A DNA stretch of 39,802 bases, from IMG/VR virus record IMGVR_UViG_2671180139_000002, positions 1 to 39,802 of that record, one strand, 5' to 3'. The translations under genes and the position numbers were made by a program. Below the pieces are notes generated by a model. It was not told the DNA's origin. It searched no databases and worked only from the letters and a program-made list of their open reading frames with translations. This DNA is from a virus. Its lineage: Duplodnaviria > Heunggongvirae > Uroviricota > Caudoviricetes. Position 1 is the first letter of the stretch; the number at the start of each line of letters is the position of its first letter. Below are positions 3,401-30,964 of the stretch, one piece after another.

Positions 3401-5130
3401 GTGGAGAGCTCGCGGACCTGCTTGTCGTGCGCGTCGGCCGCTACACGAGCCTGCTGGTCATAGGCACGCGAGGTCGCGGTCAGGCTGTCCTGGATCCGGC
3501 TCAGTTCGAGCTGCAGACCCTTGCTGACCTCGTCCTTCTCCTGCTGCCCAGTCCAGGTATCCAGCTTTTCGCGCAGCTTCGGGATCTTCGCCTCGAGATC
3601 GGCGATCTGCTGAAGCGTGTCGTCGTACCACTGACGGTTCGGGTCGTTCTCCGACAGGGTGTCGAAGCCCGCCTTCTTGAGCTGGTCGCGCTGTGCATAG
3701 AGCTTGTCGAGCTGCGCCTGCTGCTCCTTGACGTAGCCGGACGCGTCCTCGATCTGCTTGCGGGAGACAGCGCCGAACTTCTCCAGCTCCTGCCAAGCGT
3801 CCCGCGCCTTATCCTGAAACAGGCCGAAGTAGTTCGCGACCGCGACCACACCCATACCCAGCGCCGGCAGGATGCCGACAATGGAGGTGAAGCCGGTGAG
3901 CAACATCGGCGCGACGGAGGCCAGCCCTTCAGACGTGAGTGAAACGGCCGCCAATGCATCCCGAAGACTGCGAATACCGGTGACGGCTCCGCCCCAGCCG
4001 GCGAAGGCATTACCCACTACGGACGCCTGATTGCGCAGGAGCTGCAACTGAAGGCCGAGTTCGGTGAACCCGCTGGCGATCAGCTCATGCAGGGCGAGCA
4101 CCATCTTGCCGCCGAACCATGCAACGAAAACCGCGCCGACCTGCTCAATGACGCCGCGGTACTCGATCGCGGTCTCGATGACCTCACGAAACCCGGTGAT
4201 CAAGCTGCTGAGGCCGCGGCCGAGGGAATCGGCCAGGCCGTTCGCGAACTGCCCGGAGAGCAGGTTGTTGAGGTCGATGACCTGCTGCTTCACCGTATCG
4301 AAGAAGCCAGCCTGCCCCACCTTGAGGGCGAGGCTCTGCATGTTGGTGTTGACGTTCGAGATGAGGCCGTTCCAGGTGCTCATCTGAGCCTGGGCAGCGC
4401 CACCAAAGGCGCGCTCCATCTCCAGCGAGAGAGCTTCGATCGCGGGTCGTGCCTGAACCGTGCCCGTGTTGATCTTCTGGAACAGCTCGGTGACGGAAAC
4501 GCCCATGGAACGCGCCATGAGCTCGGTGGCGCGCGGCATCGCCTCGCCCAACTGCTGGCGCAGCTCTTCCATCTGGATGACGCCCTTACCCGCCATCTGG
4601 GAGATCGCGAGGGTGGCGCGCTGCAGGGTCTCGTCGGTGCCACCCATCGCGGCGACACCATCCATCAGAGCCTGCATCGAGCCCGCCATCGGGTCGATGC
4701 CGGTCGACTTGAGCTGGACGTAAGCCTTGGTCATACCCTGCAGCGAGTACGGGACCTGCAGGGCCTTCTGGCGGAGCCAATCGACCTGATCGGCCGCATC
4801 CTTGATCGGATCGGCGGCCTTGCTCATTCCCTGGAGCTGCTTGGTAAGCCGCTCCATCTCGGCGTTGACCTTGATGATATCGCCGAGCCAGCCGGTCGCG
4901 ACATCGTGGAGCTTGCCGAAAGCGCCGGTCGCGACACCGGCGACGATGGAGACGTCGCGAAGGGTTCCGAGGAAGCCCTTCGAGCTGTCAGTCATGCGCT
5001 CCAGGGCAACGATGTTGCCGTTCACGGTGCTCTGGAACTGCTGGACAGACTGCCCGGCGTGCAGAATCCGGGAAGTGAACTCCCCGGTATCAAGCTCCAG
5101 TTCAACGCGAATTCCGGCCATACTCACCAC
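448..5130 (-). CDS. Tail tape measure protein with an internal lytic transglycosylase-like domain
   Basis: 1560 aa, Ala/Gln-rich helical; N-terminal tape-measure motif (GKGVIQMEELRQQLGEAMP); internal HSESSGNANA...GAAQFIKGTW; start GTG 5130 or ATG 5121. Confidence 0.92.
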   Translation of the reverse strand: MVSMAGIRVELELDTGEFTSRILHAGQSVQQFQSTVNGNIVALERMTDSSKGFLGTLRDVSIVAGVATGAFGKLHDVATGWLGDIIKVNAEMERLTKQLQGMSKAADPIKDAADQVDWLRQKALQVPYSLQGMTKAYVQLKSTGIDPMAGSMQALMDGVAAMGGTDETLQRATLAISQMAGKGVIQMEELRQQLGEAMPRATELMARSMGVSVTELFQKINTGTVQARPAIEALSLEMERAFGGAAQAQMSTWNGLISNVNTNMQSLALKVGQAGFFDTVKQQVIDLNNLLSGQFANGLADSLGRGLSSLITGFREVIETAIEYRGVIEQVGAVFVAWFGGKMVLALHELIASGFTELGLQLQLLRNQASVVGNAFAGWGGAVTGIRSLRDALAAVSLTSEGLASVAPMLLTGFTSIVGILPALGMGVVAVANYFGLFQDKARDAWQELEKFGAVSRKQIEDASGYVKEQQAQLDKLYAQRDQLKKAGFDTLSENDPNRQWYDDTLQQIADLEAKIPKLREKLDTWTGQQEKDEVSKGLQLELSRIQDSLTATSRAYDQQARVAADAHDKQVRELSTAHKSIKDEDERYQQESRKAALDFYDKQIADLETYLTHYQEQAANAVDAVQKGTALSVADNITGQIRTLQQQRESTRSLISGVPMAPKAVNDDKAFQKGAQLLESLTDKATAYKAALQGADVEVMNLTQLLQNGKYGDMGRQEVQDLTDKLIAAKAEVRELQELMEGRNKLDNDLRAAQASAEESYYKEVIRSAELGKTKLTETDKIAIGVKAGLYKGVGPNATPMQRAVEGINTQLANTQTAAQNAARTMQSTVFGGPIINAANTLINAVQRLNEAWSSFRGNVSGTNVAGALSFDPSAVRSIGGAFSSLSGIIPGAGFLGKLIHSESSGNANAQSSTSSALGAAQFIKGTWMQFIREMHSELIQKDGKGGVMNSAQLLDMRRNAAMSVEAATWYANKNAQVLQSKGFQANDWQLKLAHMLDSSGALKVLQAAPDTLLSALLGADQISANKWQNVTAGQLKSRLAAQFGSNRTFAPTTAPIAGGQYAGPKNPGDPTLAAPAGLNGDEVSQFNATQQIEQLANAKKLENDLAETFLKTKDAIAQATEKADGFGAHVSALRKQIKEGVYGADKNPDSDRYKELIKLTKDWDDADAKAKKNQRLRSSVDSGQDRLASQAKEAADKQAEAMARLNDPSATKQSDGYFSLSRQWDDQIQKLGELYGKDSQNYKDALEQKKVALQNFQNSEVTSTIAGLAQQDAELERSLMAQGAARDNSLQQEIDRTQKLLDNFKGSAEERQRLEDAIQKHIRLVREKTAQESPIAKELQQYADFGGNLQKGMAGWIDSGLDGLATFVTTGKADFASLTQSILKDLAKMSLQWATSGLTRSLKGGGAGKGAAAGGGAGKGGGLAKLTGTAHTGGVIGASNLRSTMVNPAIFANAPKFHTGGVIRGRGLGPDEVPIVARRGEGVFTPEQMAAMGSAGGGNMQAITINSPVTVNASGGTHDQNADLAKQVSKQVEGSMRSLVVNELQKQMRPGGIAYGRR

Positions 5131-15864: not shown

Positions 15865-15970
15865 GGACGTGGCAATGCCCAAAGCCGCGCGTTCAAATAT
15901 ATAATACACAGTTAGTAGTCTCCACGTATATACATTATTTGAACGCGCGGCTTTGGTCATCACCACGTCC
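15865..15970. repeat. Inverted repeat with 35-bp arms (3 mismatches) and a 36-bp AT-rich spacer, upstream of terS
   Basis: 15865-15899 pairs with 15936-15970; the core CCAAAGCCGCGCGTTCAAATA is a perfect 21 bp. Confidence 0.9.
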
Positions 15971-24489: not shown

Positions 24490-24732
24490 TGATGCGGGGG
24501 TCTTGGTGACGATCTCAATGGGTGGATGCCCGTGTAGTGGCAACCCGAATTGTTGATTTGCTAATCGGCAAATCAGCTATAGTTCACATTGGACGACATT
24601 CGAGAGGGCATCCCAATGCGGAGTGCAGCGCTGCGGCGGCCAGCGTCATCCACGTCCAGGCCGGAAAGACAAAGACCTTCCATCGGGCACAACTCCATCT
24701 GGAAGACCTCTTCGGAGGGAAAGGCAGGGAGA

Positions 24733-25068
24733 ATGTACGCAATCGCATTCGACATGGATCAGGAGGCGCTAGCTGCGCACTATCCAGGTAATTCTCCTAA
24801 CAACGCTTATGAGTCCGTGCGCCGAGTTTTGGAGCGATTCGGTTTTCATCGGCAGCAAGGAAGCGTTTATTTCGGCAACGATACCGTGACGCCGGTCACA
24901 TGCGTCATGGCAGTGCAGGCGATGCAGAAACGGTATCCTTGGTTCGGGAAGGCCGTTTCCGACATTCGGATGCTTCGCATCGAAGAGCACAGCGATTTGC
25001 TTCCGGCGATTGCGGAACTGGAACTTGAATTAGAAGAGCCAGACGCGAATTTTGCTACCTCAGCTTAG
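24733..25068 (+). CDS. vapD: VapD family (Cas2-like) nuclease
   Basis: MYAIAFDMD...AY..V...L...GF.RQQGSVY...VSDIRMLRIEE..DL. Confidence 0.88.
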   Translation: MYAIAFDMDQEALAAHYPGNSPNNAYESVRRVLERFGFHRQQGSVYFGNDTVTPVTCVMAVQAMQKRYPWFGKAVSDIRMLRIEEHSDLLPAIAELELELEEPDANFATSA

Positions 25069-25186: not shown

Positions 25187-25702
25187 CTAAAAGCCTGCTT
25201 CCTTGCTGGCCTTGTCAATTGCGGGAAGCCAAGTGCGCAGGCTTTTATCCTTCAATTGAAGGACGCTTTCACGATCAAGGATCGAGTCCTTGTCAACAAG
25301 GACCGATTCGCTCATTCCAATAGCTCGCATATTGCGCTGGGAATCCGTCTCGTTTGCCAGACGCAGCAACCCGCGTCCTGTATAATACGCAAGGTCCGTG
25401 CAAAGCCCTTTAGCTTTGTCGCTCTTCTCATAATCTCCGAGAGCAATCCCTTCGATGTAGCAGGCAGCTTCCCAAATGCGGAACCGGGTCTTCCCTTCAG
25501 CCCATCCTAAGGGAGATAGGGGAAAAAGCCATTTCCAGCACGCAATAAGCATCCACCCGAAAGCTCCATAGATGGACACTATTCCCCCGACGGTCAAAAG
25601 CGGCCAGCCGATCCAAGGCGGCAGGGTCGGGATCGTCATGGGAAGAACCCACGAGCAAAAGGTGATTCCCCGCAATGCAATCGTTTTGTGCCAAGCCCTC
25701 AT
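25187..25702 (-). CDS. Accessory membrane-anchored hypothetical protein (start uncertain, possibly 25639)
   Basis: N-terminal hydrophobic segment; lower GC than flanking phage genes. Confidence 0.5.
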   Translation of the reverse strand: MRAWHKTIALRGITFCSWVLPMTIPTLPPWIGWPLLTVGGIVSIYGAFGWMLIACWKWLFPLSPLGWAEGKTRFRIWEAACYIEGIALGDYEKSDKAKGLCTDLAYYTGRGLLRLANETDSQRNMRAIGMSESVLVDKDSILDRESVLQLKDKSLRTWLPAIDKASKEAGF

Positions 25703-26134
25703 ACCGACAGGTTTGCATTACGACTGACTTCATTGCGAGTCATCTCCGCGCGAGCTGCGATCAGGTGGTTCCGAATATTCAAATTGAGCGAACGAGCTCC
25801 TGAGCGCCGGAGATGTCGGGAATGTTGCGGGATGTTGGGTGAGCCAAGGCTAGGAACCGCGGGTTCCTGCGGGCGCCAAGGATAGGTCACCGGAAGAGAG
25901 GCGAGCCAGAAGGCATCCCCCTGGCACACGCAAAATTTTTCTAGGACATCGACCCCTGTGGCGGGGAAGTCACGCGCAAGCACACCACCAATCCCACTCG
26001 CAACGCGCTCGCATGTGACTCGAAAGTCACACGCTCTAGAACGCTTTTAGAAGCTCACTGACAGCGATTTAGCGAATGAGCTACGAGCGTAGCAGAGAGC
26101 GCTAGAAACGCTCTCTGTGTCGCTCTGTGATCGT

Positions 26135-26722
26135 TTATTGCAGCTTCGCAAGCAGCGCTTTCGTCACGTCGCTTTCTGTGTTGAGCGTGTAGCAGATCGC
26201 ATTGCTTTCGTCGCGCGTTTCGCGAAGCACATCGAACATTTGCAGCGCATTGATTGAAGATGACGACTGCGTTGAAGCAGTATTAGCAGCGACGTGTTTC
26301 ATGTACTTAACAATGATCTTTTCGCGCTTTGCATCGCTCTTGCAAGACATAGAGCACGCGCTGATAGCGTCTTTGTGTGTCATGCGAAGTTCTGCGTTCT
26401 GAAATGCTTGCGCAGTCAGAAGAATAGCGCGCGTGTAGTGATTAAGCTGCGCTGCGCTTGCGCAAGCGCGAGCAACGTTGATGACTTTTTCAGAGGCATA
26501 CACGTTGAAGCGTGCATTGCTACGTTCTGCGCGATTGATGAAAGTAGCATCGACGTTTGCAGCGAGCATGATGCTTGCGATTGCGTCGTGATCGACGCTC
26601 TTTTTCATCGTCGCGAGCGTGTTTTGCATCGACGTGTTTTCGCTATTCTTAGCGCTTTCGTAAGTAGCGCGAGCGTCGAAAGCGGCGATGAGCGAAGCGC
26701 GGTAGGCAGTGACGTCGGACAT
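26135..26722 (-). CDS. Hypothetical 195-aa protein lacking Gly/Pro/Trp; paralog of 28638-29636
   Basis: ATG 26722 preceded by GAGAG and a sigma70-like promoter; aligns by eye with the 332-aa protein (LAANxD, NVYA, TAxTQxSS). Confidence 0.85.
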   Translation of the reverse strand: MSDVTAYRASLIAAFDARATYESAKNSENTSMQNTLATMKKSVDHDAIASIMLAANVDATFINRAERSNARFNVYASEKVINVARACASAAQLNHYTRAILLTAQAFQNAELRMTHKDAISACSMSCKSDAKREKIIVKYMKHVAANTASTQSSSSINALQMFDVLRETRDESNAICYTLNTESDVTKALLAKLQ

Positions 26723-26766
26723 GGTGTTCTCTCTGTGTTTGTTATGTGTCGTTATCGACAAGATGC

Positions 26767-26794
26767 AGAATAGAGCTTTGACAGAACGGGTCAA
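26767..26794 (-). promoter_or_regulatory. Sigma70-like promoter TTGACC-N16-TATTCT
   Basis: -35 at 26789-26794 and -10 at 26767-26772, about 45 bp upstream of ATG 26722. Confidence 0.5.
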
Positions 26795-27110
26795 GCACAA
26801 GAACGCATAGCTGTGATGCATAAATATGTGAGATAGTGCGTTGACAGAGATAGCGCAAAATGCAATTGTGTTTTCAGAGATTGAGAGGAGCGAACGATGA
26901 AGCGAACGGATGACACGAGCTGACCGAAACGGCGCAAAAGCCACAGTGGCCCAGGCGCCACATCCCAGCCCCGATCGGCACCGCGCCAGACCGCGGACCC
27001 CAGTGGCTCTTCCGCCACAACACCCCAGCCCTCCTGCCCACGGCGCCCCGAGGCGCCCCATGTCCGGCCCGCGGTTTATGCCATGGCTCTCCATGGCGCC
27101 GTTCCGCGGA

Positions 27111-27135
27111 TCCCACTGACCCAAGCCGTACCTAA
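27111..27135. repeat. 25-bp direct repeat copy 1 (TCCCACTGACCCAAGCCGTACCTAA)
   Basis: Identical to 28507-28531. Confidence 0.95.
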
Positions 27136-27334
27136 AATCCGCGCCGCCCGGAGATTTCGCCCTTCCCGGGCCATGAAATCCAACCCATGCGTGCTCATGG
27201 CGAGAAGCTGGCGAGACCGTGGCGAATATGTGTCCCTGAGAGCCCCATGGGGCACCGGGGAGCAACCGGCACCATGGAGCCCCGTAGACGCGCTCCGAAG
27301 AGAAGGGGCGCCGTAGCACCCCTCCCCTGTCGCG

Positions 27335-27682
27335 TCAGATCGCGACGTTCAATCCCATCTCGATGGCGAGCGCTGCAGCGGCGTCGTTGGCGCGCTGCGT
27401 CTTGGAGCGGCGGCGAAGAATGGCGACCCGTTCGCGCTTGCGCTCCGAGATGAGCCTACGCGCTTGCTCCCGCACGTCCTGCATCGTGATGCCCTCGGGG
27501 CAAGCACGCTCGAAGCGAACCCAGAGCTTCGCCCACTGATCGCGAGCCCGATCGCAGAGCAGCTCCTGCTCCGCCGTCTGGCGCACGCCGAAGACGATCT
27601 CAAACGAGCTGTCCATGAACTCGATGTAGTCAGCGGCGCGGGTGATGACAGAGGGGGCGACGAGAGTGATGCGGGACGACAT
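27335..27682 (-). CDS. Hypothetical protein (115 aa)
   Basis: GGAG RBS upstream of ATG 27682. Confidence 0.65.
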   Translation of the reverse strand: MSSRITLVAPSVITRAADYIEFMDSSFEIVFGVRQTAEQELLCDRARDQWAKLWVRFERACPEGITMQDVREQARRLISERKRERVAILRRRSKTQRANDAAAALAIEMGLNVAI

Positions 27683-27934
27683 TTGCTTGCTCCGTGTTCG
27701 TGTCGTTTTCGACATCGTCACTGTCGCGCGTCCGCTTCTGGGATGCGGGCGGGAGCGGATGGCGCGTGCGCGCTCCGGAGACGCTTGGGAGGTCATGGCC
27801 GCGGGAGACGGCGATCGCCGGCGCCATGGTCATCCATGGAGCGCCACGGCCTGAGTTTCACGGACCATGGCGGCCTGCGGAGAAAAGACCTGGCCTGGCC
27901 TCGAGAGACCAGACCGGCCTATGGTGCGTGGACC

Positions 27935-28165
27935 TCAGTAGCCCCAGGGGCTCAGATCGGGGATGCGCCCGAACCGTCGGTGGTACTTGCGATAGGTCTT
28001 GGCGATCAGCGTCGCCTCCGAGAGCATCATGGAGCGTTGCTCATGGGCGATGTGGCGCACATAGGCGCCGAACTCGTCGCTCCAGGTCTGAACCCGAAGC
28101 TGCCACCGGAAGAGCTTCCTGGGGTCGCGCTCCAGGCGAACGATGATGGAGGTCCGCGCGCTCAT
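27935..28165 (-). CDS. Hypothetical protein (76 aa)
   Basis: TGATG-coupled to the 38-aa upstream ORF. Confidence 0.55.
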   Translation of the reverse strand: MSARTSIIVRLERDPRKLFRWQLRVQTWSDEFGAYVRHIAHEQRSMMLSEATLIAKTYRKYHRRFGRIPDLSPWGY

Positions 28166-28281
28166 CAGCGGACGCTCGCGAGGACGATGACGAACGTCAG
28201 GAAGAGCACGGTGCAGGCGAACAGATCGGAGTTCACATAGCGCCAAAGCATCAGGTCGGCGGTGTTGAGGAACTTCTTCAT
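28165..28281 (-). CDS. Small 38-aa membrane peptide (MKKFLNTADL...FLTFVIVLASVR)
   Basis: Below the ORF-track cutoff; GGAG RBS, hydrophobic C-terminus, stop overlaps the next ATG. Confidence 0.55.
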   Translation of the reverse strand: MKKFLNTADLMLWRYVNSDLFACTVLFLTFVIVLASVR

Positions 28282-28294
28282 CTGCTATCTCCGT

Positions 28295-28312
28295 CCAGTC
28301 AGTGTTGACTGT
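28295..28312. promoter_or_regulatory. Palindromic motif copy
   Basis: CCAGTCAGTGTTGACTGT, upstream of ATG 28281. Confidence 0.6.
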
Positions 28313-28506
28313 CAGAGTGTCGCGCAGCTCGAGACGGGATGCGGTTGGCACCTGGTGGGATCGCAAGTGGCTTCCCATGGAGCTCCTGGGAGCCCCGTGG
28401 AGCGCGTTTGTGCCTTGGAGCCCCACCGATGCCCTCGGGACGCCATGGAACCCGCCCTGGGGCCCCTGAGTCGCGGCAGAGCCATGGAGGAACGTCGTTC
28501 CTCGGG

Positions 28507-28531
28507 TCCCACTGACCCAAGCCGTACCTAA
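28507..28531. repeat. 25-bp direct repeat copy 2
   Basis: Identical to 27111-27135. Confidence 0.95.
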
Positions 28532-28595
28532 CCGCGCACGCGACCGTACCTGGTTTCCGCCTGGCGCGGCAGCTCCATGGGATCCTCGTGCCGCG

Positions 28596-28620
28596 AAAAA
28601 GGGACGCCGAAGCGTCCCTT
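28596..28620 (-). terminator. Intrinsic terminator
   Basis: AAGGGACGC-TTCG-GCGTCCCTT with a T-tract on the - strand, just after the stop at 28638. Confidence 0.85.
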
Positions 28621-28637
28621 CTCCATCCCTCCTTTCG

Positions 28638-29636
28638 TTACGCTGCGAGGAGCTCCTCGATCTTCCGGGCGACCGGGGTATCGGTCACGCGGTAGACGGG
28701 GTTGCGGGTCGAGCCCTGGACCGAGACGGCGCCGATCGTCTGCAGGGCCTGCATGGTCGAGGAGGCTTGCGTGGGCGCGGTCGAGGCGGAGACCGTGTGC
28801 GAGACCAGGTGCTTCCTGAGCGCCGCTTCCACGCGGACCTTGTCGGAGGCTGCAGCCTTGGCGAGCTCACCGGTGAAGTCGAGGCCCGCGGCCCGGAAGC
28901 GGAAGAGCGACTTCATGCAGGCGATGTTGATGGCGTTGGTCAGCGCCCCACCTCCGAGCATGGAGGCGATGTCGGCGAACTTGCCGATGGCGTAGACGTT
29001 GTAGCGGGACCCGTCATGGCGCGACCCGTTCATGAAGGCGGGGTCGATGTTGGCGGCGAGGAGGACCCTGGCGACACCGGGGCGGACCATCTTCTGCCGG
29101 GCCGACTTGAGGGTGCGCTGAATGTTGGCGTTGTCCTCGTTCTTCCACTTCTCGAAGTCGGCGCGCTCGTCGATCTCCTTGCCGATGGCGTGCAGCATGG
29201 TGTCGACCTCTTCCTCGTCGACGGCGTCGAGCATGGCGTCGAAGGTCTCCGGCTCGTTGTTGCCCTCGGCCTGCTCCTCCTGGACCTCGTGGATGGCCTC
29301 GGGTTCCTGGACCTCGATGGCCTCGAGGTGGAGGACCGCTGCTTCCAGGTCCTTCTCGGAGACGGGCTCGTCGCTCTCCGGAGCGGCTTCCGGTTGGGCC
29401 TCGGTCTCCAGGGTCGCTTCGGCGACTTCCTCAGCCGAGAGCTCGATGGTAGCAGGTTCGTCCTGGGGCGCAGCGGTGTCGGCGCTCTCCGGAGCGATGA
29501 TCTCCATCGCGTCTTCGGCGATCGTCTCGACGACGGGCTGACCCTCGGCAACGATCTCGGAGACCGCGTTGATGAGTTCGGCGTCGCTCAAGGCGGCGAC
29601 GGTGGCGGATGCGATGTTTTTCTTGCGACGTGTCAT
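28638..29636 (-). CDS. Hypothetical protein with an acidic N-terminal extension; paralog of 26135-26722
   Basis: High-GC3 codon usage, own terminator, homology to the island gene. Confidence 0.85.
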   Translation of the reverse strand: MTRRKKNIASATVAALSDAELINAVSEIVAEGQPVVETIAEDAMEIIAPESADTAAPQDEPATIELSAEEVAEATLETEAQPEAAPESDEPVSEKDLEAAVLHLEAIEVQEPEAIHEVQEEQAEGNNEPETFDAMLDAVDEEEVDTMLHAIGKEIDERADFEKWKNEDNANIQRTLKSARQKMVRPGVARVLLAANIDPAFMNGSRHDGSRYNVYAIGKFADIASMLGGGALTNAINIACMKSLFRFRAAGLDFTGELAKAAASDKVRVEAALRKHLVSHTVSASTAPTQASSTMQALQTIGAVSVQGSTRNPVYRVTDTPVARKIEELLAA

Positions 29637-30489
29637 AGTATTCTAGTCCTCTGCGTTGCTCAGCGCTCGTTTGCGTCGCTGACAAGTATCAATTTACTGA
29701 TTGAGGCTAGGGGTACTACTGGAACGTAGTGGGACGTTTTCTTTCTTATTTCGCGCCATGGTGTACACACGCGCGCACGTACTCTATATATAAGCAATCA
29801 CCTGCGCCGCCCGACCATGGTATGACTTGAAGTCCCATGGTTCACCTTGGTGAGGATCTCCACGCCGGATGATGGCTTTCCTCGGAAGTGTGGATGAGGA
29901 CCTCCATGGCACCCCGAGGCAGATCATGGCTCTCCATGGTCTCGAGGCTATTCCGGGAATCCTGGAATGAGGACAATCCATGGGGCGCCATGCCGATGAG
30001 GCTTTCGCCATAGAGGTTCATGGGGCGTGGCGCGTGTGGATCGCCATAGTGAGGACGCCCGTGGAAGCGCGGAAAGTCCGTACCAGGTCCCGCCTCTACC
30101 GGGACATGCGTCCGTACCTAATTTCCGGCTGAGCGGCGAACCATGGAGAAATGCCGCCAAAAGAAAAGGCGCTCCGAAGAGCGCCTTGAGAGTTGAAGCG
30201 CGGGTGTCGAGGCCGCGCAAACACAGAGTGTCCGGCGAAGCTGCTCGGTGAGCGTCGTTCGCTGAACAAGATCGTTTATAGCTGATCGAACGAGGCTGTC
30301 ACGAGGGAGAAGGCGGATTTTCGAGGATGAGGCTTTCAAAGAGGACGTCGCCGGTCCCTCCTCTAGATCCACACCCTCACGCATCTATTCCCCACACACG
30401 GGCACACCTCTGTCCCTCTATACGCGGTCACTCTCTCTTGGGGTCTCTGGTGCGCATTCCGGAGAGTCTCTACCTCTTTGGGTATGGTG

Positions 30490-30561
30490 ATGCCCAAGCC
30501 CTCGCGCTCAATAAGTAGATACTTACGTATATATATTATTAGAAGACGCGGCTTTGGGCAT
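30490..30561. repeat. Second, more degenerate copy of the AT-cored inverted-repeat element
   Basis: 30526-30561 matches 15925-15960 at 31/36 positions. Confidence 0.85.
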
Positions 30562-30964
30562 TCGTTGGTTTTCTCACTCTTCCGGAGATGGTCGCGCTCT
30601 CTGTCTCTCTTAGGCAGAAGCTGTCAGTCTCTTCCGGGAGCGATCGTTTTCGATGCTATTTTCCGGGCTCAGATGCGTTTCGCTCGAATGTTCCCTTTCT
30701 TGAAACATTTGGATTTGGGAAATCGCGGAGTTCTGGGCTTTTGATGATGTTGCAACGGGTGCTATGGGTTTCGGCTGTAACTTAGCTGAAACATAGCACC
30801 AACATTTCATATACATAGCCATCAAGACGTAATTAGTCGTCTGATGGGAAATGTTTCAGGCGGCCTGAGGGTTTGAGACCTGCCCTCGGCCGTGGCCTGA
30901 TGGACCAGTACCTGTGTTCGGTGGACTAGAGCGTGGGTCAATGATGGCTGATGTCGAACCGGTC

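Follow-up and report, generated by a model that had tools for sequence, protein, structure and literature searches.

What keeps one short operon of a phage-like replicon almost free of the dinucleotides CC and GG, when the DNA on either side of it is rich in both? The question is raised by the IMG/VR virus record IMGVR_UViG_2671180139_000002 (Caudoviricetes), of which we analysed positions 1 to 39,802, hereafter the window. It represents the first 39.8 kb of a 109-kb contig with a GC content of 61%; that of the large chromosomal contigs is about 65–67%. The feature concerned, which we call the CC/GG desert, is the following:

25996–26923, both strands: CC/GG desert, with zero CC and ten GG on the plus strand; about 50% GC within a 61% GC replicon

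Base frequencies predict 43 CC and 75 GG for these 928 bp, and 20,000 shuffles of the desert gave a mean CC+GG of 117 and a minimum of 83, against the 10 observed (GG at plus-strand positions 26495, 26684, 26701, 26705, 26717, 26723, 26788, 26789, 26887 and 26908). The longest CC-free gap of the plus strand measures 930 bp (25995 to 26923) and the runner-up in the window 119 bp. An earlier note on this DNA, made from its letters, had reported that CC is absent here and GG nearly so, and our recount agrees with it down to the places of the ten GG. For the sub-stretch 25996–26683 (688 bp, 50.7% GC) it had estimated that about 80 GG and CC should occur; computation from the base frequencies gives 89, where one is observed. 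Both edges are abrupt, since the adjoining 400 bp contain 33 CC and 37 GG (70 together) on the left and 74 CC and 30 GG (104) on the right, compared with a mean of 59 per 400 bp in the window; the sudden switch to CC-dense DNA described at the right edge is therefore real. Other short words are retained inside the desert (TT 81 times, GATC 4, GCGC 19, CGCG 13, GAAC 6 and GTTC 4), as had also been stated. In the whole 4.2-Mb assembly the desert is the sole 400-bp window with six or fewer CC+GG and the longest CC/GG-free gap outside it is 128 bp, so that scanning the replicon and the host genome revealed no second desert.

The operon and its protein

The desert is one complete leftward operon of the type transcribed by host RNA polymerase. 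Its parts, in the direction of transcription and starting from the boundary with the preceding unit, are:

26946–26961, minus strand: terminator-like hairpin followed by a T-run; it is part of the upstream unit and, situated barely beyond the desert edge, marks the limit between the units
26767–26794, minus strand: sigma-70-type promoter TTGACC-N16-TATTCT, found by a promoter scan; the same -10 box is aligned in relatives
26747–26760, minus strand: small leader hairpin UGUCG-AUAA-CGACA; most relatives show a hairpin at the equivalent place
26728–26734, minus strand: GG-free ribosome-binding surrogate AGAGAGA, 5 nt ahead of the ATG, conserved family-wide
26135–26722, minus strand: coding sequence of a basic 195-amino-acid (aa) protein (isoelectric point, pI, 8.9) with zero glycine, proline and tryptophan; the C-terminal half is a predicted winged helix
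25996–26134, minus strand: untranslated 3' tail, 139 nt, in which two strong hairpins form without any GG or CC; fold z = -3.5

The desert begins right after the terminator-like hairpin of the upstream unit. Its promoter is the only sigma-70-like one that the scan found inside it, and two of the ten plus-strand GG come from the CC of the -35 box (TTGACC). Upstream of this box the DNA is clean for about 95 bp here and for up to more than 300 bp in relatives. The plus strand had been described as the template of the leftward gene, and the coding sequence does run from 26722 to 26135 on the minus strand; because the template holds no CC, the mRNA has zero GG, with ten CC, over 928 nt. Terminator-like hairpins on the antisense strand lie within the coding sequence. 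Since the upstream region, promoter, leader, coding sequence and 3' tail are all clean, the desert is a property of the whole transcription unit and not of codon choice, as the earlier note had argued. A cause acting through translation only, such as a lack of glycine, proline or tryptophan tRNAs, is ruled out because codon junctions and non-coding parts are equally clean.

The encoded protein does without glycine, proline and tryptophan because CC and nearly all GG have been removed from its DNA. Similarity of sequence indicates that it is a short paralog of a neighbour with normal composition:

28638–29636, minus strand: paralog of normal composition, 332 aa, with a core 33% identical to the desert protein; 14 glycines and 14 prolines

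This paralog adjoins at 1.9 kb and joins a basic core to an acidic N-terminal extension of 149 aa (pI 4.05). The 120 closest homolog clusters of the desert protein contain 0.2% glycine, 0.2% proline and one tryptophan in total, against 7–12% in distant homologs, many of which carry N-terminal extensions. A composition that is extreme in close clusters but normal in distant ones argues that the nucleic-acid constraint shaped the protein and not the reverse.

No family match was obtained with the desert protein in Pfam, NCBIfam, PHROG and PADLOC, nor with ten of its distant homologs in Pfam. An AlphaFold (AF2) model from a 40-sequence alignment reached a predicted local distance difference test score of 95.8, and residues 85–195 of the model resemble MarR, PadR and linker-histone H1 domains (Z 7.4–8.6, root-mean-square deviation 2–3 Å, about 80 residues), a common range that makes the match moderate and generic. 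Fold searches of PDB, AFDB, BFVD and Atlas returned only uncharacterised relatives and generic winged-helix matches. The invariant stretch NTASTQSSSSINALQ forms, in the model, the helix directly before a two-strand hairpin, and by the usual winged-helix layout we take it to be the presumed recognition helix. The predicted fold thus makes a DNA-binding regulator the most likely role of the protein.

Conservation and loss among relatives

Orthologous units at 26–66% protein identity are also CC/GG-free over 0.7–1.6 kb in Methylobacterium plasmids, in metagenomes and in the Rhizobium phages B1VFA and RHph_X66. The orthologous stretch of the Methylobacterium plasmid pAMS5a comprises 1,531 bp without CC or GG. 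The 109-kb contig and pAMS5a each contain a single desert, the count for the plasmid covering its 117 kb except for about 1.6 kb. Eight of 19 related loci have no CC and no GG in the gene, within deserts of 0.7–1.6 kb; one of them is a TARA ocean contig at 32% identity. The desert is found in about a dozen IMG/VR and metagenome loci. In B1VFA and RHph_X66, deserts of 851 bp and about 770 bp surround a homolog that is 26% identical and is recovered by profile comparison at 97% probability. Locus L015 carries a normal paralog as well as a desert paralog, the latter within 1,102 clean bases.

In the window's desert 27% of all single substitutions would create CC or GG, and synonymous recoding of the same proteins with local codon usage would give 30–40 CC and 16–21 GG per gene. 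Orthologs that differ at 186–265 of about 585 aligned bases contain 0–1 CC/GG, where random replacement at those sites gives 38–50. These comparisons show that the desert is kept by purifying selection, in line with the earlier claim that the unit must stay CC/GG-free. The longer deserts of relatives take in further small genes of the same strand, without glycine or tryptophan and with 0–2 prolines; the trait therefore belongs to the operon. Its orientation relative to the neighbouring genes is not conserved, and a target in duplex DNA consequently fits better than an effect of the direction of entry.

The expectation that orthologs would also be CC/GG-free despite divergence holds for most, but not for all of them. 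The M. oryzae plasmid and loci L014 and L023 have the gene but no desert, and the CC/GG content of the gene is normal; scoring of two loci gave 46/16 and 43/12. Loci L040 and L041 are fully normal, with a gene GC of 0.68–0.71, and have regained glycine and proline. The presumed recognition helix is unchanged in the relaxed lineages, the M. oryzae plasmid clade and L040/L041 among them. All strict loci have AGAGAGA as ribosome site, whereas the fully relaxed L040 and L041 have GGAG in its place, which identifies AGAGAGA as a GG-free substitute for a Shine-Dalgarno sequence and means that the constraint has a cost. The trait is thus conditional, on an outside agent that is presumably missing in the relaxed lineages.

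Partly relaxed units tell the two strands apart to some degree. Eight of them have regained about 90 sense-strand CC and 20 sense-strand GG (CC on the template), compared with a neutral ratio near 2:1. This modest asymmetry suggests that template-strand CC, equivalent to mRNA GG, does more harm.

Some loci show additional features near the desert. A long (CA)n microsatellite lies at the edge of the 1.1-kb desert of L015 (L015:8933–9119). In the Rhizobium phages tRNA genes are found 1–1.5 kb from the desert (L030:11629–11866; L031:8717–8965): in B1VFA they are for Met and Asn, along with a pseudo-tRNA whose anticodon is CCA, and in RHph_X66 for Met and Trp(CCA). The desert proteins have no tryptophan.

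What might read CC and GG

We favour, at a probability of a little under 0.4, an activity that acts on CC/GG in DNA and makes ordinary DNA a poor template for transcription, from which the regulator operon is exempt. Such an activity, of phage or host origin, would recognise CC/GG on DNA by way of base modification in that context, nicking or a bound protein, and at some stage ordinary DNA would become a poor template. The operon would have been recoded, ribosome site and amino-acid alphabet included, so that its promoter and template strand offer no target. In this way a host-type promoter could go on driving the regulator while the activity is on, and lineages without the activity would let the trait decay. 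We infer a target in DNA rather than RNA, and harm to transcription, because promoter and upstream DNA are clean, both strands are mostly clean, orientation is free, template CC is penalised more and the trait decays. The template-blocking mark and the CC/GG-reading silencer proposed in the earlier note are both still candidates.

The nearest functional analogy to this template model is the Alc protein of phage T4, which halts host RNA polymerase on cytosine-containing DNA and not on the modified DNA of the phage. In both cases templates would be told apart by base chemistry and only 'invisible' DNA transcribed; whereas T4 exempts its whole genome by base replacement, here a single operon would be exempt by the choice of its sequence. 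An Alc homolog was not found, though no search aimed at one was made. The CCD nickase and methylase of Chlorella viruses, Nt.CviPII and M.CviPII, illustrate that recognition of a CC-based word two to three bases long on DNA is within the reach of viral enzymes.

Several points weigh against the template model. Unlike the Chlorella viruses, this replicon carries no identified homolog of the CviPII enzymes, and searches for the common C5 and N4/N6 methyltransferase families match only other contigs; no CC/GG-specific writer, nickase or binder was identified. Local base skew may account for part of the strand asymmetry. A comparison of gene content between strict elements (C37, pAMS5a, B1VFA) and a relaxed one (the M. 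oryzae plasmid) left only homologs of rIIA and rIIB and a few small open reading frames (ORFs) as a difference; this pair, found in the three strict elements and not in the relaxed one, is not plausible as a CC/GG reader, and because only one relaxed genome was compared we judge the difference to be coincidental. The model is also silent on the transcription, during the block, of the CC/GG-rich phage genes in the remaining 100 kb. Finally, upstream promoters or antisense transcripts could render the whole desert transcribed, so that the target might be at the RNA level.

This last point leads to the main rival, which we consider unlikely: with neither GG nor CC in the mRNA or in any antisense RNA, the transcripts of the operon would escape a dinucleotide-specific endoribonuclease, such as a RegB-like phage shut-off enzyme, a host HEPN protein or a toxin RNase, and the regulator would be translated while other messages are destroyed. 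Short-motif RNases exist: T4 RegB cuts GGAG, and Sulfolobus Csx1 reportedly cleaves at C-C. Messages free of the ACA site of MazF, and the T4 messages spared by RegB, escape sequence-specific RNases and stay translatable, and the desert mRNA is comparable in that it lacks GG, Shine-Dalgarno sequence included. The rival is consistent with a sense strand without a single GG over 928 nt, with GG being the last dinucleotide to return in partly relaxed lineages, with the surrender of the Shine-Dalgarno GG and its recovery on release, and with leader and tail hairpins built without GG/CC; the antisense terminator-like hairpins within the coding sequence leave room for antisense RNA. It accounts for the GG-free message and the lost Shine-Dalgarno sequence as well as a template block does. 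Less easily explained are the equal purge of CC, which is as complete as that of GG in most lineages and would require one RNA to face two specificities or full antisense transcription, and a clean stretch ahead of the predicted -35 box that measures from about 95 bp to more than 300 bp; in both respects the desert differs from the MazF and RegB cases. No candidate RNase was found, a Cas2/VapD-like ORF 1 kb away being without counterpart in the related loci compared, and we know of no such RNase for these phages or hosts.

More doubtful still is the view that the unit is first-entering or terminal DNA, which has to survive a host defence reading CC/GG (a restriction enzyme, a nickase or a CRISPR system using CC/NGG as protospacer-adjacent motif, PAM) until its product is made. 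The precedents are the first-step-transfer (pre-early) DNA of phage T5, which has no EcoRI sites, and the leading end of T7; T5 first-step-transfer DNA is said to have been treated by Davison and Brunel in 1979. There, as here, a bounded region with host-type promoters is free of the target of an enzyme while the rest of the genome is not. In T5 a 6-bp site is missing, whereas here a dinucleotide is gone on both strands and a 17-letter protein alphabet has been forced. B1VFA, like RHph_X66 a siphophage with phage-plasmid features, has fixed ends and a terminal repeat of 3,605 bp (PMC12509600), but its sequence record starts arbitrarily inside genes, so that the repeat is not placed relative to the desert. 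In the window, an inverted repeat at the start of terS (15865–15970; 35-bp arms, AT-rich core) has a third arm at 30537–30562, 14.6 kb away and 3.6 kb from the desert edge, and in B1VFA a comparable arm recurs 2.3 kb from the desert (L044 about 5030–5120; L030:7400–7416). These arms may be terminase or packaging sites, and the third one is a lead, not evidence, for a terminus close to the unit; a position at a physical end is only a candidate one. Against early entry, the orientation of the unit is not conserved, and a clean 1 kb leaves the remaining DNA exposed unless the product counters the defence. The product is a predicted basic winged-helix protein, which does not look like one that would do so and, in contrast to T5, is not a known anti-restriction protein.

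What is known of site avoidance also bears on this view. Phages are stripped by selection of short words that sequence-reading defences need, restriction sites and PAMs alike, and the desert resembles this. Known avoidance is statistical, replicon-wide and mostly concerned with palindromes, whereas the desert is absolute, confined to one operon and spares palindromes. When 12.2 kb of deserts were pooled for a word-avoidance test, four-base palindromes were found near expectation (observed/expected CGCG 0.91, GCGC 0.96, TCGA 1.10, TGCA 1.28, GATC 0.67; only GTAC was low, 3 against 9.8) and no strong avoidance of any other di-, tri- or tetranucleotide was detected. General restriction-site avoidance is thereby rejected, and the earlier statement that palindromes are not generally avoided is upheld. 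The deserts contain no enriched repeated motif, and no parS-like palindrome occurs at the desert of the window. The host assembly, 99% complete, yielded neither Csy3 nor Cas9, and a 110-kb replicon is not shielded by a single kilobase free of PAMs; both facts weaken the PAM avoidance (type I-F, Cas9) that had been listed among the candidates. Phosphorothioation of CCA by an Ssp-type system does not fit either, since every CCN is gone and not CCA alone; nor are the Dnd/Ssp motifs lost, GAAC (6) and GTTC (4) being still present in the desert. CC-specific deamination, also suggested before, is contradicted by the composition, in which the remaining G+C sits in GC (1.85-fold) and CG (1.70-fold) steps and the deamination products TC/CT, AG/GA and TT/AA reach only 1.0–1.25-fold, as well as by the sharp edges and by a trait selected through more than 200 substitutions per pair.

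A slim chance remains for self-avoidance, in which the winged-helix protein or its paralog binds or spreads on CC/GG DNA and its own operon is free of sites so as never to be silenced or roadblocked. The single desert of each replicon does sit on this gene family in every lineage examined, and the protein is basic with a predicted winged-helix fold. Dense arrays of CCATGG boxes border the unit in the Methylobacterium-like subgroup; in the window the block next to it is:

26924–27334: non-coding block dense in CC/GG and containing CCATGG boxes, immediately upstream of the desert; its sense strand is G-rich

Eighteen of the 33 CCATGG boxes of the contig lie at 27081–30141, commonly with a spacing of about 10 bp and in the extended form CCATGGAGC; they are distributed over four non-coding blocks that each precede a leftward gene, and from this arrangement they look like candidate operator or iteron arrays. 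They recur near the gene within the subgroup, still stand upstream in the relaxed loci L014 and L023, and are missing from B1VFA and RHph_X66 in spite of their deserts, and therefore are not tied to the desert. The idea of the arrays as a landing pad linked to it is rejected for the same reason. Relaxed lineages, moreover, keep the presumed recognition helix yet tolerate 40–90 CC in the gene, and a winged helix that reads just two base pairs would be unusual.

Least probable of all is a physical property of CC/GG-free nucleic acid (a lack of G-clusters and hence of quadruplexes and R-loops, a lack of hot spots of GG oxidation, or a changed geometry of the helix, with the dense flanks perhaps acting as sinks): the sharp switch to flanks above average in CC/GG, the G-run-rich sense strand just upstream and the especially strict avoidance of sense-strand GG would agree with it, but such effects are weak and graded, whereas single GG are excluded at the expense of glycine, proline, tryptophan and the Shine-Dalgarno sequence, and there is no apparent reason why one operon alone should need it or why lineages should drop it fully.

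The replicon and the meaning of the desert

The replicon is a RepC/ParA siphovirus phage-plasmid of about 110 kb, of the B1VFA/pAMS5a type (a class of about 110–125 kb). By Pfam, the window encodes a siphovirus structural and terminase module, ParB/Srx genes, a DEAD-box helicase and ParA with a small ribbon-helix-helix (RHH) protein. Its gene order is collinear with pAMS5a, whose genes include RepC, DnaE, a DnaB-like helicase, sigma factors and ThyX, and with two cultured Rhizobium phages, B1VFA and RHph_X66; the annotation of the M. oryzae plasmid shows this order as well. This architecture, shared with pAMS5a, the M. oryzae plasmid and B1VFA, bears out the phage-plasmid nature assumed in the earlier note. 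ParA, a 192-aa protein and the paralog have tblastn matches in nearly all related loci. The desert gene was found in none of 31 other genomes of the host's family, and contig scans for its relatives found none.

Several neighbours of the operon were recorded in their own right. Just upstream of the desert, at 26960–27070 (minus strand sense), several GGG/GGGG runs lie a few bases apart in a pattern that could form quadruplexes. An 8-codon mini-ORF (26897–26923, plus strand), with the ribosome site GAGAGGAG and a TTGACA-like box upstream, reads from the desert towards the array block. After the desert on the same strand follow two ORFs of 94 and 171 aa (25187–25983, minus strand) in a stretch of 53–57% GC; neither of them matches a family, and the related loci lack counterparts. 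The solitary Cas2/VapD-like ORF (24589–25068, plus strand; Pfam CRISPR_Cas2 E 5e-6, PADLOC Cas2 E 3e-10) is situated in a lower-GC island 1 kb from the desert. Farther away, rIIA- and rIIB-like genes occupy C37 49451–53145 (L037:2452–6146, minus strand; PHROG E 2e-108 and 2e-80). They are also present in pAMS5a and B1VFA, where one is annotated 'N4 gp34-like', and there are none in the M. oryzae plasmid. In pAMS5a a DUF2829 protein (record positions 47921–48385; L016) is encoded in the cluster adjoining the terminase, with an ABC-type ATPase and ParB/Srx genes as neighbours; DUF2829 is the family of the anti-Thoeris protein Tad2.

Our literature search found no published description of a dinucleotide-free phage operon. 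A dinucleotide-level immune footprint is represented by the CpG depletion of vertebrate RNA viruses under ZAP, but that depletion is genome-wide and partial and affects RNA in eukaryotes, whereas the desert is limited to an operon, complete, present on both DNA strands and found in a bacterial virus. Complete, selected removal of one dinucleotide from a whole operon goes far past known site avoidance. Its price is three amino acids in the protein and the Shine-Dalgarno sequence in the message, and it is held across phages of hosts that span at least three orders.

The desert implies a strong factor with two-base specificity, be it a DNA modification, a nuclease or RNase, or a transcription block. 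We see not far short of an even chance that alphaproteobacterial phage-plasmids or their hosts own an undescribed activity that reads the bare CC/GG step on nucleic acid (as a DNA mark, a nickase or a transcription block), and that a 'pioneer' regulator operon has been rewritten to be invisible to it, down to its ribosome site and a 17-amino-acid alphabet. The cultured phages B1VFA and RHph_X66 carry the trait, and the relaxed lineages represent natural controls. The reader, once found, could provide a new mechanism of defence or counter-defence or a dinucleotide-specific enzyme, and, if the proposal is true, the reading of a bare CC/GG step would be a new principle of selective gene expression in infection or plasmid carriage.

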